DNA from: Acidobacteriota bacterium
GTDB taxonomy: Bacteria; Acidobacteriota; Polarisedimenticolia; Gp22-AA2
Length of the DNA: 64,000 bases
Reading direction: 5' to 3'
Assembly: GCA_018606725.1 (NCBI GenBank)
Contig: JAGYID010000001.1
Span: 52,803-116,802, forward strand
Shown here: positions 34,026 to 39,255 of the stretch, piece after piece
Position numbering within the stretch: position 1 is the first letter of the stretch
Layout: each line of letters opens with the position of its first letter
Notes under the pieces: model-generated
Databases searched by the model: none
What the model saw: the letters and a program-made list of their open reading frames with translations, nothing else
What the model was told of the DNA's origin: nothing
Translations under genes and position numbers: made by a program

Positions 34026-35963
34026 ATGCCGATTCCCCGCCAAATCGTCGCCGGCACCGCTGGCCACATCGACCACGGCAAGAGCCATCTCGTCCGCGCT
34101 CTGACCGGCACCGACCCCGACCGTCTTAAGGAGGAGAAGGAACGGGGCATCACCATCGACATCGGGTTTGCGCATCTGGAGCTGCCCGGCGGCCTCCGGG
34201 TCGGGTTCGTTGACGTCCCCGGGCACGAGCGTTTCATCAAGAACATGCTGGCGGGCGTCGGCGGCATCGATCTGGTGCTGCTGGTCATCGCCGCCGACGA
34301 ATCGATCAAGCCCCAGACACGCGAGCACTTCGACATCTGCGGGCTGCTGCGCATTCCGCGCGGCATCATCACGCTGACCAAGACCGATCTCGTCGAGCCG
34401 GATCTCCTCGATCTCGTCCGGCTGGAAGTGCGTGATTTCGTCGCCGGCTCCTTCCTGGAGTCGGCGCCGGTCGTGGCGGTCAGCAGCAGGACCGGTGAGG
34501 GCCTCGAGGAGCTGAAGGCAGCCATCGCGCGGGTCGCCGCCGATATCGCGCCGCGCCCGCAGCGTGGCCTCCTGCGCCTGCCGGTCGACCGTTCCTTCAG
34601 CATCAAGGGGTTCGGTAGCGTCGTCACAGGCACGCTGAACGCAGGGACCATCCGGGTTGGAGACGAAGTCGCCGTCCTGCCGCGGGGCGTGACCACGCGG
34701 GTGCGCGGCCTCGAAGTGTTCAATCGTCCCACCGAGGTCGCCCTGCCCGGTCAGCGGACGGCCGTCAATCTGCAGGGGATCGAGGCCGGCGCGGTTCAGC
34801 GCGGTGACCTGTTGAGCGCTCCCGGAGTCCTCGAACCGTCGCATCTGCTCGACGTCGAGCTGGAGATACTGGCCGGTGCGCCGGCGCCCCTGCTCGATCT
34901 TGCGCGGGTGCGGTTCCACCATGGAACGCTCGAGGCGATGGCGCGCGTCAAGCTCCTCGGGGAGAAGGCGGTACCGCCCGGCCGCCGCGCCTTCGCCCAG
35001 CTGCGGCTGGAGACCGCCGTCTGCGCCCTGCCCGGCGACCGTTGCGTGATCCGCCGCTACTCACCGTCCCTGACGATCGGCGGCGCGGTCGTCCTGCACA
35101 ACCGGCCGGTGAAGCTGAGGACGTCCGCGCCCGGCGCCCGCGAGCGGTTCGAGCGGCTGGCGCAGGAGGCTCCGGAGACGCGGCTTTCCGTCCTGGTCGA
35201 AGAGGGGGGTGAAGCCGGGATCGATGCCCCGGCGCTGCGCACCCGGACCGGTCTCTCCTTCGAAGAGCAGGTGGAAATCCTGGACGCCATCGTGCGCGAC
35301 GGTCGCCTCGTCCGCCTGCCGACCCAGCCGCCGCGGTATGTGACCGGCTCGATCTACCGGACCCTCTCTGACCGCGTCCTGACCGAGATCGACGCGTTCC
35401 ACAAGAAAGAGCCGCTCCTGGAGGGGCTCCCGAAGGAGGAGTTGCGGACCAGGTTGTTCGCCGGCAGCCACCCGGACGTCTTCCGCTGTCTGCTCGCCGA
35501 CCTCGCGGCGCGCGGCGTGCTGCGAACCGACCGGGATCGGATCGCCCGATCGGCGCACCGGATTGACTTGACGCCGGCCGAGGCCTCTCTCATGGAGACC
35601 ATCGAGCAGCGCTTCGAGACCGCGGGGTCAAACCCGCCCGACCCGGAGGAGGTCCTGAATTCGTTCCGCGCCGGGCGGGCGCAGGCCGCGCGCCTGTTCC
35701 ATCTGTTGATCGGCCGCGGCCGGCTGGTCCGCATTCCGGACGGCAAGATCTTCCACGTCCGGGCCCTGGAAGACCTGAAGCGCCGCCTGTGGGAGCAGCG
35801 GGCCAGGAATCCGGTCATCGACATCGCCGAGTTCAAGGACCTGAGCGGCACGAGCCGCAAGAACGCCATCCCGCTCCTCGAGCACTTCGACCAGTTGCAG
35901 GTGACCCGGCGGGAGGGCAACCGCCGTGTCATATTGCCCCCTCCCCCCCCCGGGCACCCCTGA
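34026..35963 (+). CDS. selB: Selenocysteine-specific translation elongation factor SelB
   Basis: G-domain [18 protein letters not shown], followed by a long winged-helix C-terminal extension typical of bacterial SelB. Confidence 0.85.
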
Positions 35964-35964
35964 A

Positions 35965-35993
35965 TTGACAGGCCCACGGCCGGAGTCTAAGAT
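35965..35993 (+). promoter_or_regulatory. Consensus sigma-70 promoter (TTGACA-N17-TAAGAT) upstream of tatA
   Basis: Read directly: ttgaca at 35965-35970 and taagat at 35988-35993. SD aggtga lies ahead of the ATG at 36014. Confidence 0.5.
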
Positions 35994-36013
35994 GAACTCG
36001 AGGTGAAACGCCC

Positions 36014-36187
36014 ATGGGTTCGATCGGCATTCCAGAGCTGTTACTGATCTTCGTGATTCTCCTCCTGATATTTGGTGGCAAGCGGATCCCCGAGCTGGCT
36101 CGCGGCCTCGGCGCCGGCATCCGCAACTTCAAGGATGCCCTGCACGGCGATTCATCGCAGGGAGACCAGAAGAACAAGGAGAAGTAG
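36014..36187 (+). CDS. tatA: Sec-independent protein translocase TatA/E
   Basis: MGSIGIPELLLIFVILLLIFGGKRIPELARGLGAGIRNFKDAL... is a classic TatA. It is 57 aa and is absent from the ORF track, which has a 60-aa minimum. Confidence 0.85.
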   Translation: MGSIGIPELLLIFVILLLIFGGKRIPELARGLGAGIRNFKDALHGDSSQGDQKNKEK

Positions 36188-36193
36188 CCCAGC

Positions 36194-37954
36194 CTGCAGC
36201 CACCGACACCCCCTCTCAAAGTCCCCGACGAGATCGCCTTCCAGAGGGCCGCGGTCGAACGCCTCAAGAAGGAGATCCGCGGTGTCGACCGGAACGGCCG
36301 CCGGCGCTATATCCGCGATTTTCACGACGAGTTCTCCCGCTTCGAATCGGTCTCCTCGCTCGACGACCTCAGCATCGCCTGCTACAAGGCGGATCTCGTC
36401 TACATCGGTGACTACCATGCCCTGCCGGCCGCCCAGGAGTTCGCCGCCTGGCTGCTGCGCGACGTCGCCGCGCGCTCGCGCGAGGTGGTGCTCTGCCTGG
36501 AAATGGTCTACGCCCGCAACCAGAAGGTCCTCGAACGTTACATGCGGAACGAGCTGGACGAATCCGAGTTCCTCAAGGCGATCCGCTACGAGCTCGATTG
36601 GGGCTACGAGTGGCAGTCATTCCGGCGGTTGTTCGACGCGGCCCGGACGCTGGGGTTGCCGGTGTACGGCATCGACTCGGAGCCGCGCAGCGGCTTCCGG
36701 TACATCGCCCGGCGCGACGCCCACGCGGCGGCCCGCATCGCCGACATCGTGGAAGCCCGTCCGGGCGCCAAGGTCGTGACCGTCGTGGGGGAATCGCATC
36801 TGGCGCGCACCCATCTGCCACGACGGGTCACCGATCTGCTCAAGAAGAAAGGGATCGAGAAACGTCCGGTCATCGTGCTGCAGAACCAGGAAGAGATCTA
36901 CTGGCAGCTCGCGGAGAAGGGCTTGCGGGATGTCGATGTGGTGAGCCTCGGCCCCGGTCGCTTCTGCCACTTCAACGCCAGCCCGATCGCCAAGTACGAG
37001 GCCTACCGGCAGACGATCGAGGCCTGGGACCGCGAGCCTGATGACGACCAGGGGCTCGACCTCACCTCGACCGTCTACAGCATCATCGACACCATCCTGC
37101 GCTTCCTCGGCATCGACAAGTACACCGAGGTCATCGAGCGGCCCGGGCGCGGACACGATTACCTGGTCGACCTCTACCCGGAGGTCTACACCGCCTCGGA
37201 GCACAAAGATCTGAAGAAACTGCTGAAGTCGCACGAGTTCGGGGCCGAGGAGATCGACGAGATCCTGGGGCACGTCTCCGAGCGCGGCTCATGCTACATC
37301 CCGCGCATCAACGGCATCGTCATCGGACAGTTCAACATGGTGCACGCCGGCGAGGAGGCGGCCCATTTTGTCAATCTGATCCTGAAGGGGGAGATCTACC
37401 AGCAGGCGCCGCGCGAGATGCTGCAGCACGACCTGTTCTACACCGGCACCCTGGAGGAGGCGATCGGTTTCTTCGGGTCGAAGCTGATCGATCCGAGCCG
37501 CAACCATTTCTTCGAGACGGAGTTCTATCAGTACTACCGCAAGGACCGCGCGGTGATCGAGGCCGAGACTCCTTACAGCTACGAGGACTTCAACGCGATC
37601 ATCAATTTCATCCTGCTGCACAAGAAGTTCGAGCAGTCGTACGACCAGTATGAGGAGGTTCCGCAGGAGATCCTGGACGGCATCCGCTCCGAGCCGCGGC
37701 GCGCCAATATCCTGATCCACGAGCTGGGGTATTTCCTGGGGCAGCAGATCTACGATGCCTATCGGGCGGGGAGCCTCGACCGGCGGACCATCGCGTCCCT
37801 GTTCCGCCGGTCGTTCAGGGAGAGCGGCAGCGCCCTGCGGGCCTACCTCGATCTCACCGAGAAGGTGCGGCCGGCGGCGCAGGAGCCGGCCGGTGGTCCA
37901 GCGCCGGCCCCTCCGGCCGGGCCCGGCGGTAAAGAATCCCCGTCGACGAGCTGA
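36194..37954 (+). CDS. ChaN/Tiki-like (PF04187-type) protein with a long C-terminal extension; start codon unresolved
   Basis: ChaN-like motifs ADLVYIGDYHALP...VVLCLEMVYARNQ and VVGESHLA. The domain begins upstream of the first canonical start (GTG at 36485). The frame is open back to the TAG at 36185-36187, which is tatA's stop in the same frame, with no ATG/GTG/TTG in between. Confidence 0.5.
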   Translation: MQPPTPPLKVPDEIAFQRAAVERLKKEIRGVDRNGRRRYIRDFHDEFSRFESVSSLDDLSIACYKADLVYIGDYHALPAAQEFAAWLLRDVAARSREVVLCLEMVYARNQKVLERYMRNELDESEFLKAIRYELDWGYEWQSFRRLFDAARTLGLPVYGIDSEPRSGFRYIARRDAHAAARIADIVEARPGAKVVTVVGESHLARTHLPRRVTDLLKKKGIEKRPVIVLQNQEEIYWQLAEKGLRDVDVVSLGPGRFCHFNASPIAKYEAYRQTIEAWDREPDDDQGLDLTSTVYSIIDTILRFLGIDKYTEVIERPGRGHDYLVDLYPEVYTASEHKDLKKLLKSHEFGAEEIDEILGHVSERGSCYIPRINGIVIGQFNMVHAGEEAAHFVNLILKGEIYQQAPREMLQHDLFYTGTLEEAIGFFGSKLIDPSRNHFFETEFYQYYRKDRAVIEAETPYSYEDFNAIINFILLHKKFEQSYDQYEEVPQEILDGIRSEPRRANILIHELGYFLGQQIYDAYRAGSLDRRTIASLFRRSFRESGSALRAYLDLTEKVRPAAQEPAGGPAPAPPAGPGGKESPSTS

Positions 37955-38810
37955 AGGTGTAGGCCGCCGGGATAGGCTCGAGATAGCCGAGCCGCGTCAG
38001 CGCCTGCAGGGTCTCCACGGCCACCGTTTCGGACCATCCGCAGGCGCTGGCGACGTCCTCGGCGACCAGGCTCGAACGCGGCTCGCCGGTCAGCCGCGCC
38101 AGCAGGTCGCGGCAGCGACCGTGCAGGTCGAGGCGGTCCCGCCCGGCGCACAGATCGCGCACCGCGGCGGCCGCCAGCACGGCGGCGCAGCGGCCCAGCA
38201 TCGGCTCGGCGCACTCCAGGAACAGGTCGAAGCGATCGAACCGGTCGGCATGGGCGCAGGTCGCCCCGCTGCAGCGGCGGCCGCGCGACGCCGTCAGGAT
38301 GAGGTCGATCGCCACGTGCTCGATCAGGTGCGCCAGCGCCAGCCCGTCCCCACCGTCCCCCTTGACCGGGCCGGCGGCCGCGTCCGGGATCGCCGCCGAC
38401 GCGATCGCCTCCCCGTCGGCCGCGCCCGTTCCGGCGAGGGCATCGAAGATCCCGAGTCCGCCGGCGCAGCGATGTTCGGGGAGACGGGGACAGAGCCGCA
38501 GGAGCGCCTCGCGCTCAGCTGCGGCGAGGAGCGGCGTCCGCGCGCGCAGGCCGGCGCCGATCTCCAGCGTGACCCGGATGCGGATGACGCCGGGGATGAA
38601 CCGCTCGTTGAACCGGCTGGCCTCGGGGAACTGGCCATGCTGCAGCTGAACGATGCGGATCGAGTCCGGCGGAACATGCGCTTCGGCGCGCTCGGGCGCG
38701 TCGGCACCGCCCCGCCGACGGGTGTGTTTGCTGCGCATCTTGTCGCGGAAACGTCGCAGTAGATCGTCCGACAACAACTCCTCCCGCGGAGGTTGACGGC
38801 GGTGCTTCAA
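37854..38810 (-). CDS. Hypothetical protein (strand and frame uncertain)
   Basis: Either this ORF or its antisense partner (37755..38762 +) may be real. Third-position GC sampling was ambiguous. No recognisable domain. Confidence 0.3.
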   Translation of the reverse strand: MKHRRQPPREELLSDDLLRRFRDKMRSKHTRRRGGADAPERAEAHVPPDSIRIVQLQHGQFPEASRFNERFIPGVIRIRVTLEIGAGLRARTPLLAAAEREALLRLCPRLPEHRCAGGLGIFDALAGTGAADGEAIASAAIPDAAAGPVKGDGGDGLALAHLIEHVAIDLILTASRGRRCSGATCAHADRFDRFDLFLECAEPMLGRCAAVLAAAAVRDLCAGRDRLDLHGRCRDLLARLTGEPRSSLVAEDVASACGWSETVAVETLQALTRLGYLEPIPAAYTFSSSTGILYRRARPEGPALDHRPAPAPPAAPSR

Positions 38811-39010
38811 CGCTCCGTGCGAAGAACCTCCTCGTCCAGGGTCCCCTGCAGGATGACCCGATACTCGCCGGTGTTCTGATCGACCATCTCGACCTGCGCC
38901 GCGGCATTCACGGAGTGGATCAGCAGGTCGCCGAGCTTGGAGCCGAGCGTCGCCGGTGACGTGGGCGAGCTCTCCAACGTCGCGAGATCAGTGATGCGAA
39001 ATCGACTCAT
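38807..39010 (-). CDS. Small hypothetical protein (67 aa), paralog of the adjacent gene
   Basis: ATG at 39010 with an SD gggaga 7 nt upstream. Shares the pattern R-F-x-(I/V)-T-x-...-P-T-S-x-A-x-L-x-x-K-L-...-TGEYR-(I/V)-(I/V)-LQGT-(I/L)-D-x-E with the neighbouring gene. Confidence 0.5.
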   Translation of the reverse strand: MSRFRITDLATLESSPTSPATLGSKLGDLLIHSVNAAAQVEMVDQNTGEYRVILQGTLDEEVLRTER

Positions 39011-39048: not shown

Positions 39049-39255
39049 TCAGGCGCCCTCAAAAGGGATCTTCTCCGTGTCGATGGTGCCCTGCACGACG
39101 ATGCGGTACTCGCCGGTCGTCGGATTGATCGACTCGACCTTGAGCCGCGCCGACGTCGAGCTGATCAGCATCTCGCTGAGCTTGGTGCGCAGCGCCGCGG
39201 CCGAGGTCGGGGCCTTCTCCAGCAGCGGAAAGTGAGTGACCTGAAAACGCGCCAT
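39049..39255 (-). CDS. Small hypothetical protein (68 aa), tandem paralog
   Basis: MARFQVTHFPLLEKAPTSAAALRTKLSEMLISSTSARLKVESINPTTGEYRIVVQGTIDTEKIPFEGA. ATG at 39255 with an SD ggaggcc. Confidence 0.55.
   Translation of the reverse strand: MARFQVTHFPLLEKAPTSAAALRTKLSEMLISSTSARLKVESINPTTGEYRIVVQGTIDTEKIPFEGA

Follow-up and report, generated by a model that had tools for sequence, protein, structure and literature searches.

A gene for a ChaN/Tiki-like protein located directly downstream of tatA has no canonical start codon at its N-terminus, and it probably begins instead at a CTG codon (positions 36194 to 36196, + strand), with initiation probably coupled to the translation of tatA. The stretch of DNA that was analyzed, hereafter the window, spans 64,000 nucleotides and belongs to the MAG of an uncultured Acidobacteriota bacterium (class Polarisedimenticolia). 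A start at this CTG would give a proposed full coding sequence from 36194 to 37954 on the + strand (586 aa and a TGA stop). Since the gene most likely begins at this rare codon, its shortened database entry (36503 to 37954, + strand; 483 aa, starting at ATG 36503) would lack about 100 residues. The comparisons described below lead us to infer that this CTG is the codon from which translation starts and that coupling to tatA plays a part.

A reading frame without a canonical start codon

The upstream gene, tatA, runs on the + strand from ATG 36014 to a TAG stop at 36185-36187 (36014 to 36187) and encodes a product of 57 aa that matches Pfam PF02416 (TatA_B_E, E=1.1e-19) as well as TIGR01411. 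Its dN/dS between the window and the related locus L001 is 0.08. The ChaN-like frame is the same as that of tatA and stays open from 36188 to a TGA at 37952-37954, a total of 588 codons, confirming that the two genes are in frame across a single TAG as the sequence-only reading had claimed. The same reading had reported that the downstream gene is missing a canonical start, and a codon-by-codon scan of this frame from 36188 to 36484 likewise found no ATG, GTG or TTG, the first being GTG 36485. The only start-type codons of table 11 that precede this GTG in frame are CTG 36194, five ATC codons (36233, 36275, 36311, 36374 and 36404), and CTG 36422, 36452 and 36455. The length of this 99-codon run carries no weight by itself: stretches of 103 and 131 codons devoid of ATG, GTG and TTG occur deeper inside the same gene, and the oddity is the absence of any start codon at the N-terminus. 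An out-of-frame canonical start followed by a frameshift was also considered and rejected, as there is no ATG, GTG or TTG in any of the frames between 36136 and 36281.

The 99 codons in question (36188 to 36484, + strand) are under strong purifying selection and are evidently translated. Between the window and L001, they differ by 20 synonymous and 3 non-synonymous changes (dN/dS 0.04), while the other two frames of the same stretch give dN/dS values of 4.6 and 2.8. Within the first 17 codons of the frame there are 5 synonymous changes and 1 non-synonymous change, which points to translation from approximately 36200 or earlier. The 99 codons also contain the GDYH of the Tiki/ChaN fold, and within the 588-codon frame the match to PF04187 (Cofac_haem_bdg) starts at residue 67. 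GTG 36485 follows 33 codons later, so the ChaN similarity that had been claimed for the region before this GTG holds in a Pfam profile search. With the 588-codon frame as the query, alignments to full-length homologues of ~575 aa reach a coverage of 95-99%, and several tblastn matches begin at residue 1 or 2.

It is very unlikely that the gene is decaying, or that it yields an N-terminally truncated product only, from GTG 36485 or ATG 36503. Gene callers do report short products throughout the lineage of the window: the exact 483-aa product is present in an NCBI-derived collection (P0121), and the corresponding calls in the relatives are 483 aa for L001 (P0001) and 489 aa for L126. However, a truncated product would miss the invariant GDYH along with the initial strand and helices of the ChaN fold, the dN/dS across the 99 upstream codons argues against both decay and truncation, and the 588-codon frame is unbroken in two diverged genomes.

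CTG 36194 in the window lineage

The window lineage (group A) consists of the window, L001 (from a JGI metagenome) and L126 (from the Logan assembly of SRR11714509). The two close relatives were obtained via protein look-ups only, and scans of genome contigs and metagenome contigs found no relative closer than 73%. Taken together, these are three independent assemblies from different pipelines, but they represent just two sequence variants. L001 and L126 share the TAG-CCC-AGC-CTG junction with the window and encode a protein that is ~93% identical, and both carry many synonymous differences relative to the window. The suggestion that the missing start is an artifact of sequencing or assembly, such as a genuine ATG recorded as CTG, is refuted by this shared junction, and its probability is close to nil. 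CTG is indeed one base from ATG, and L002, the closest ATG-start relative, has ATG CAG where the window has CTG CAG, but the CTG is common to all three assemblies and both variants. The expectation that orthologues would show a canonical start at this point is borne out for most of them, which have ATG, but not for the two closest relatives, whose shared CTG indicates a fixed state and not an error. Within the window lineage, conservation of the CTG is not statistically informative, because an entire 33-nt block at the junction is identical in the only two variants.

For a broader comparison, approximately 36 distinct ATG-start loci were set beside 13 CTG loci, 11 of them from a second clade. 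The ATG of most of these 36 loci is found 17-20 codons before a conserved anchor, FQRAxVxRLKKEI, and in L017, L063 and L064 it is found 13 codons before it. CTG 36194 sits 15 codons before this anchor and 6 nt past the tatA stop, and it is the sole near-cognate codon where the homologues carry ATG. Its proposed Shine-Dalgarno (SD) sequence, AAGGAG (36176 to 36181, + strand), is located within the last tatA codons, 12 nt before the CTG. The duplex of AAGGAG with the anti-SD is predicted at -8.5 kcal/mol, compared with a mean of -2.5 in the ATG-start homologues. The 12-nt spacing in the window is probably among the longest that still function and is greater than the 3-10 nt of the second CTG clade. 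AAGGAG occurs too in L048, an ATG-start relative, which means that it was inherited from the tatA C-terminus as opposed to having evolved for the CTG.

Non-canonical initiation, which had been proposed at either CTG or ATC, is thus supported for CTG 36194 specifically, by the upstream SD and by its homologous position. Initiation at another non-canonical codon, whether at ATC 36233 or at the CCC or AGC that follows the stop by start-codon-independent reinitiation, is quite unlikely. ATC is in frame and is a permitted start in table 11, and weak initiation has been detected from many codons (Hecht et al., bioRxiv 10.1101/063800). Nevertheless, ATC 36233 has no upstream SD and encodes the Ile of a conserved EEIAFQ block that is present also in homologues with an upstream ATG, while the codons at 36197-36232 show almost exclusively synonymous changes between the window and L001. 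CCC and AGC, for their part, are not near-cognate.

A second clade with an invariant CTG

Eleven distinct loci that form a second, monophyletic clade likewise lack a canonical start ahead of the conserved N-terminal peptide; in L118 and L121, canonical starts occur only late, 2-6 codons before the anchor. A CTG is invariant across all 11 loci, 13-14 codons before the anchor, and a GGAGG-like SD is found 3-10 nt upstream of it. In 9/11 of these loci, the CTG overlaps the TGA stop of tatA as CTGA, with the two genes in different frames. The base preceding the CTG and the last tatA codon vary at this junction, but the C of the CTG does not. The 10 codons that follow the CTG show a pN/pS of 0.39 in frame vs. 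1.0-1.3 out of frame. Two loci, L054 and L121, are without an intact tatA, yet retain both the SD and the CTG.

Since the window lineage is nested in the ATG clade, the CTG state arose at least twice, and in both origins the tatA stop is no more than 6 nt away. Every CTG locus has a strong SD, and no ATG locus has one. The SD strengths of the 13 CTG loci range from -7.9 to -12.1 kcal/mol, whereas the strongest among the 36 ATG loci does not go beyond -6.6. The two groups are separated completely (Mann-Whitney U=0), a contrast that represents only two or three independent evolutionary events.

Possible readthrough of the tatA stop codon

If ribosomes read through the tatA TAG, in a programmed or a leaky manner, a 646-aa TatA-ChaN-like fusion would result, and it is highly improbable that this is the functional form of the downstream protein in the window lineage. 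The proposal takes its appeal from the arrangement of the locus, in which tatA and the downstream frame are in phase with one TAG between them, as they are in L001 and L126, and from the order of tatA followed by the ChaN-like gene, which is kept throughout the class. The C-terminal tail of TatA is cytoplasmic and the downstream protein is without a signal peptide, so a fusion is topologically possible. However, an in-frame arrangement has a 1-in-3 chance of occurring, and many ATG-start loci are likewise in frame with tatA. The stop of the tatA homologues, whether TAA, TGA or TAG, occupies this very position, which indicates that the tatA stop is ancestral. A stimulatory RNA structure is absent from the junction (fold z=0.77), and TAG is used as a stop by 5/31 high-GC3 ORFs in the window. 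A tRNA search of the window found no tRNA and hence no suppressor tRNA there. In the second CTG clade, the gene persists although tatA is in another frame or missing. Programmed readthrough, as put forward in the sequence-only reading, therefore has no positive support. Both CTG initiation and TAG readthrough would give low expression, and for this reason the two are separated only in part by sequence alone in the window lineage.

Proposed mechanism and known parallels

In the favored reading, the ChaN/Tiki-like gene is intact and is expressed from a transcript that it shares with tatA. A sigma-70-like promoter, TTGACA-17 nt-TAAGAT (35965 to 35993, + strand), lies 5' of tatA with 10/12 matches (shuffled sequences gave a mean of 0.2) and probably drives both genes. 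It is the sole promoter-like site within 35700-38300, and neither a promoter nor a + strand terminator was found between tatA and the ChaN-like gene. The element recurs 5' of tatA in L001, L002 and L126, and the equivalent element in L054, L056, L118 and L121 is TTGACA..TAGACT. The SD of tatA itself, read from the sequence as GAGGTG (36000 to 36005, + strand), is 8 nt 5' of ATG 36014 and is kept in L001 and L126.

On such a transcript, the AAGGAG in the last tatA codons would position the ribosome, and the initiator tRNA would read the near-cognate CTG as fMet to produce the 586-aa cytoplasmic protein. With the CTG just 6 nt past the tatA stop, ribosomes fresh from tatA termination probably contribute to initiation, through translational coupling or termination-reinitiation. 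Expression of the ChaN-like protein would then be low and linked to the translation of tatA. In E. coli, CUG initiates at ~1-2% of AUG (bioRxiv 10.1101/063800). Coupling is favored by NTGA overlaps and +3 spacings (PMC12548453), reinitiation requires distances of less than ~20 nt (PMC10666635), and coupling via NTGA (-4) overlaps or closely spaced stop and start codons has been reviewed (PMC12548453) and addressed experimentally (PMC10666635; PMC6728339). The loci described here have such short stop-start distances within one putative transcription unit: the window has a distance of +6 nt, and the second clade has the -4 overlap CTGA.

The proposed start resembles known bacterial near-cognate CTG/CUG starts (table 11) in that an SD-preceded CTG replaces the ATG of the orthologues and low efficiency is expected. 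Unlike those cases, this CTG is a fixed state conserved throughout a clade, with at least two origins in one gene family; it is also systematically paired with a strong SD that is absent from the ATG orthologues, a pairing known here from sequence. The locus is similar to NTGA-coupled gene pairs as well, given the CTGA overlap with the tatA TGA in the second clade, the +6 nt distance in the window, the predicted co-transcription with tatA and the location of the SD inside the end of the upstream gene. It differs from typical NTGA coupling in that N is C, the weakest of the four. It also differs from obligatory coupling, as L054 and L121 retain the CTG after the loss of tatA, which indicates that coupling is not obligatory in those two loci.

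Features of the predicted protein

The match to PF04187 scores 82.4 bits against a gathering cutoff of 27.7 and is partial: residues 67-164 align to positions 7-105 of the 213-position profile, which is its first half only. An AlphaFold model of the protein (pLDDT 81.6, pTM 0.79) predicts a fold that agrees with ChaN (2G5G) and its relatives, with the ChaN/Tiki-fold domain at approximately residues 50-282 of the 586 aa (36341 to 37039, + strand). The Tiki-type active site of this superfamily is characterized by conserved GxxH ... E ... GxxH(L) motifs. These motifs are present here as G72-D-Y-H75, E103 and G199-E-S-H-L203, all of which are invariant in 27 sequences. The unusual C-terminal extension of about 330 aa noted in the first reading is present, but it is not peculiar to this gene and is highly conserved in every family member. 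It contains an all-helical, family-wide domain at approximately residues 291-565 (37064 to 37888, + strand) with the invariant motifs H384-x-G-E-E-x-x-H391 and H509-E-L-G-Y513.

Neither a signal peptide nor a lipobox was recognized by eye, as N-termini such as MQSPPPQPTSLPIKEEVAFQ contain neither a Cys nor a hydrophobic stretch, and the protein is thus predicted to be cytoplasmic. NCBI names the homologues ChaN-type haem-binding lipoprotein, a type that has a signal peptide with a lipobox cysteine and a periplasmic location, in contrast to the protein predicted here. The PF04187 match and the predicted fold of PDB 2G5G relate the protein to Campylobacter jejuni ChaN and the Tiki/TraB/PrgY/erythromycin-esterase superfamily. 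Unlike C. jejuni ChaN, to which it is only ~17% identical in sequence, it has no signal peptide or lipobox, and it features an N-terminal helical hairpin and the conserved helical C-terminal domain of ~275 residues.

Implications of the proposed CTG start

Naturally fixed CTG starts in bacteria are rare and mostly single-gene cases. The CTG-started ChaN-like gene is a clear and comparatively well-supported instance of this known but rare phenomenon, and the case made from comparative data alone is strong, with two independent ATG to CTG replacements in one gene family. The switch is complete, from ATG without an SD to CTG with a strong one, and both replacements are tight against the tatA stop. 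It is conceivable, if doubtful, that a weak CTG, within 6 nt of the tatA stop or in overlap with it, evolved at least twice under selection as a means of tying a low, fixed dose of the protein to the synthesis of TatA, and that the ChaN-like protein is then Tat-associated. If so, a cytoplasmic protein with a Tiki fold and a zincin-like character could act, for example, as a protease on Tat substrates or on TatA itself. In a rarer variant of this idea, part of the product in the window lineage would be a true TatA fusion formed via TAG readthrough.

A selected role aside, the family would offer a handy natural system for the trade-offs among start-codon strength, SD strength and coupling. It is also relevant to annotation, as standard gene callers shorten every examined CTG-lineage product by ~30-100 residues. 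In the window lineage, the lost residues include part of the catalytic fold, and 483/489 aa are left compared with 586 aa if the start is at CTG, and many database entries of the second clade are 543-aa calls. Two further apparently startless products, P0050 and P0037 (546 and 562 aa), were set aside because their DNA contains an in-frame ATG upstream, which makes them simple gene-caller miscalls.

Absence of a Canonical Start at the N-Terminus

The tatA gene runs on the + strand from ATG 36014 to TAG 36185-36187 and encodes 57 aa (Pfam TatA_B_E, E=1.1e-19; TIGR01411 match). Behind it, on the same strand and in the same frame, 588 ChaN/Tiki-like codons are open from 36188 to TGA 37952-37954. 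A codon scan bears out the sequence-only reading that no canonical start precedes GTG 36485: this GTG is codon 100 and the earliest in-frame ATG, GTG or TTG, preceded among table-11 start-type codons solely by CTG 36194, five ATC and three later CTG. Between 36136 and 36281, all frames are free of ATG, GTG and TTG. The claimed similarity upstream of the GTG also holds in an HMM search, in which PF04187 (ChaN/Tiki, Pfam) scores 82 bits on the 588-codon frame against a cutoff of 27.7 and its match begins at residue 67, 33 codons upstream of GTG 36485. While the start is indeed absent from the N-terminus, a 99-codon stretch free of these codons is not in itself rare, since runs of 103 and 131 codons lie further inside the same GC-rich gene. 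The true anomaly is the missing N-terminal start rather than the length of the run.

Over 1,100 homologues emerged from a protein search. The best come from Acidobacteriota, chiefly Candidatus Polarisedimenticolia, have about 575 aa and cover 95-99% of the frame; these begin with M and a stretch of 12-18 Pro/Ser/Thr-rich residues that leads into the conserved block (E/D)E(I/V)AFQ(R/K)AxVxRLKKEI. The window's own product is listed in an NCBI-derived collection with 483 aa, called from ATG 36503, and the database product of its closest relative (P0001, 93% identity) also has just 483 aa. The contig of P0001 (locus L001, JGI Ga0373623_0001231) carries a sigma factor, two DUF507 genes, selB, tatA and the ChaN-like gene; in both L001 and the related locus L002, selB, tatA and the ChaN-like gene are ordered as in the window, with a sigma-70 factor and the two DUF507 genes ahead of selB. 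The L001 junction is exactly that of the window, AAGGAGAAG-TAG-CCC-AGC-CTG-CAG, and is identical in a third assembly, L126 (Logan, SRR11714509), so sequencing error, one of the explanations first offered, was set aside. Between the window and L001, the 99 startless codons differ by 20 synonymous and 3 non-synonymous changes in the ChaN frame (dN/dS 0.04), against dN/dS of 4.6 and 2.8 for the same bases in the other two frames, and the first 17 codons alone hold 5 synonymous changes and 1 non-synonymous change. These codons are thus translated in both of the diverged genomes, beginning at about 36200 or before. With a dN/dS of 0.04, pseudogenisation was set aside, as was a product shortened to begin at GTG 36485.

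Position of the Start in Related Loci

All 115 related loci were aligned on the conserved N-terminal block FQRAxVxRLKKEI (the anchor). Orthologues, to which the sequence-only reading had looked for start codon and spacing, give a divided answer: an ATG precedes the anchor at each of the 36 other distinct loci of Polarisedimenticolia type, and L001 shares the window's CTG. The ATG mostly lies 17-20 codons before the anchor (13 in L017, L063 and L064). The corresponding distances in the window and L001 are 18 codons for the tatA TAG, which leaves 17 codons open, and 15 for the CTG. L002, the closest ATG-start relative, has ATG-CAG at the site of the window's CTG-CAG. Two further apparently startless products, P0050 (L116 743-812) and P0037 (L117 1480-1501), are called from an internal GTG with an in-frame ATG 23 and 7 codons upstream, respectively, and were rejected as ordinary miscalls. 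Gene calls in this family often misplace the N-terminus, even when a canonical start is present.

A Second CTG Clade

Eleven distinct loci (L056, L057, L060, L061, L118, L122, L123, L124, L125, L054 and L121) are monophyletic in a neighbour-joining tree, which places the window and L001 apart from them, nested inside the ATG clade. Upstream of the conserved N-terminal peptide L-S-R-x-D-S-A-x-x-R-E-E, all 11 lack a canonical start; the only late ones are an ATG in L118, 2 codons ahead of the anchor, and, in L121, a GTG 6 and an ATG 2 codons ahead of it. Each locus carries a CTG upstream of the anchor at a distance of 13 or 14 codons; in all nine loci with tatA, this CTG overlaps the tatA stop as C-TGA, and the two genes are in different frames. 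Although the base preceding this C and the final codon of tatA vary, the C is invariant. Over the ten codons after the CTG, pN/pS is 0.39 in frame vs 1.0-1.3 out of frame. Public gene calls here are too short, many being 543-aa entries from the GTG of A-V-ERLKK. The same CTG solution at the tatA junction has thus evolved at least twice.

L054 and L121 retain GGGGA-N6-CTG-AGC-CGC immediately downstream of the promoter. In L121 (Ga0506506_0003939, ~980-1165), a decayed, frameshifted tatA remnant (ILLSLLVLSFVRLGSGKAS...) separates the CTG from the conserved promoter; L054 (~2280-2320) has lost tatA cleanly, and its CTG occupies the tatA-start position behind a GAGGGGGA Shine-Dalgarno (SD) sequence. 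Since loci without tatA retain both elements, CTG plus SD would be sufficient by itself in at least this lineage.

Start-Codon and Shine-Dalgarno Strength

As a measure of SD strength, the 20 nt ahead of every start were folded against the anti-SD sequence. Duplex energies range from -7.9 to -12.1 kcal/mol at the CTG loci (n=13, mean -10.2) and average -2.5 kcal/mol at the ATG loci (n=36), none of which is stronger than -6.6. The two groups are fully separated (Mann-Whitney U=0), although the evolutionarily independent events behind this contrast number just two or three. A C-rich leader, such as ccggcccgccATG, with no SD sequence precedes the start in every one of the 36 distinct ATG-start homologues (L002-L117), which suggests that most Polarisedimenticolia initiate this gene SD-independently. 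The window's SD, AAGGAG, falls within the final codons of tatA (N-K-E-K-stop) and is separated from the CTG by 12 nt; spacing in the second clade is 3-10 nt. Because the ATG-start locus L048 has the same KEK-stop ending, with its ATG 18 nt past the TAG, the SD of the window's lineage was inherited and came into range as the spacer shrank. Across the family, the weaker start codon is cleanly matched by a stronger SD; this trade-off, together with the repeated evolution of the CTG, takes the case beyond a routine annotation fix.

Transcription and Initiation

The sole promoter-like site, TTGACA-17-TAAGAT (35965-35993, +), lies upstream of tatA and is conserved in related loci. As there is neither a + strand terminator nor room for a promoter between tatA and the ChaN-like gene, the two are predicted to be co-transcribed. 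Programmed readthrough of the tatA TAG, yielding a TatA-ChaN fusion, had also been offered to explain the arrangement. The two frames coincide and a fusion is topologically possible, but an in-frame arrangement is a 1-in-3 event common to many ATG-start loci, and tatA homologues stop at the same position with TAA, TGA or TAG. Moreover, the junction lacks RNA structure (z=0.77), the window contains no tRNA genes, TAG is the stop of 5 of its 31 high-GC3 ORFs, and the second clade is unable to make the fusion. Readthrough in the window's lineage is thus highly improbable.

Non-canonical initiation fits better: CTG 36194 lies near the homologues' ATG position, has a strong SD and recurs in the second clade, and translation quite likely begins there with initiator tRNA. 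The mechanism thereby proposed is rare but known: initiation at a near-cognate CTG that has a strong SD and lies tight against an upstream stop. Since just 6 nt separate the CTG from the tatA stop, ribosomes that have finished tatA probably contribute through coupling, which is supported by NTGA overlaps and +3 spacings (PMC12548453); reinitiation declines within ~20 nt (PMC10666635). Because CUG initiation in E. coli is ~1-2% of AUG (10.1101/063800), low expression linked to tatA would be expected.

Predicted Protein and Neighbourhood

The AlphaFold model of the 586-aa product (pLDDT 81.6, pTM 0.79) has three parts, including an N-terminal helical hairpin and, past a short low-confidence linker, an all-helical domain (~residues 291-565) with invariant H384-x-G-E-E-x-x-H391 and H509-E-L-G-Y. 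The C-terminal extension, at first considered unusual, is a family feature carried by all homologues, including those of Terriglobia at 33-37% identity. As neither a signal peptide nor a lipobox occurs at any N-terminus in the family, a cytoplasmic location is predicted for the protein, and the database name "ChaN family lipoprotein" would be misleading.

Directly upstream of tatA, selB (34026-35963, +) encodes all four SelB domains (selenocysteine-specific elongation factor), and the selB-tatA-ChaN-like order recurs in each of the other related loci for which the flanks were read. At its 3' end, the ChaN-like gene shares 101 nt (37854-37954) with a convergent ORF (37854-38810, -), an overlap also present in L001 and L126 but absent from L002. 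The overlap is confined to the unconserved Pro/Ala-rich tails of both proteins, and the convergent product shares 52% identity with the corresponding L002 protein as far as residue 297 of 318. Two paralogous small ORFs follow (38807-39010 and 39049-39255, both -; 67 and 68 aa) with the pattern M-x-RF-x-[IV]T...TGEYR[IV]...QGT[IL]D; their called genes match no Pfam family. They are syntenic downstream of the ChaN-like gene in L002, L116, L117 and L126, and in L002 ParA/CbiA-like genes come next.
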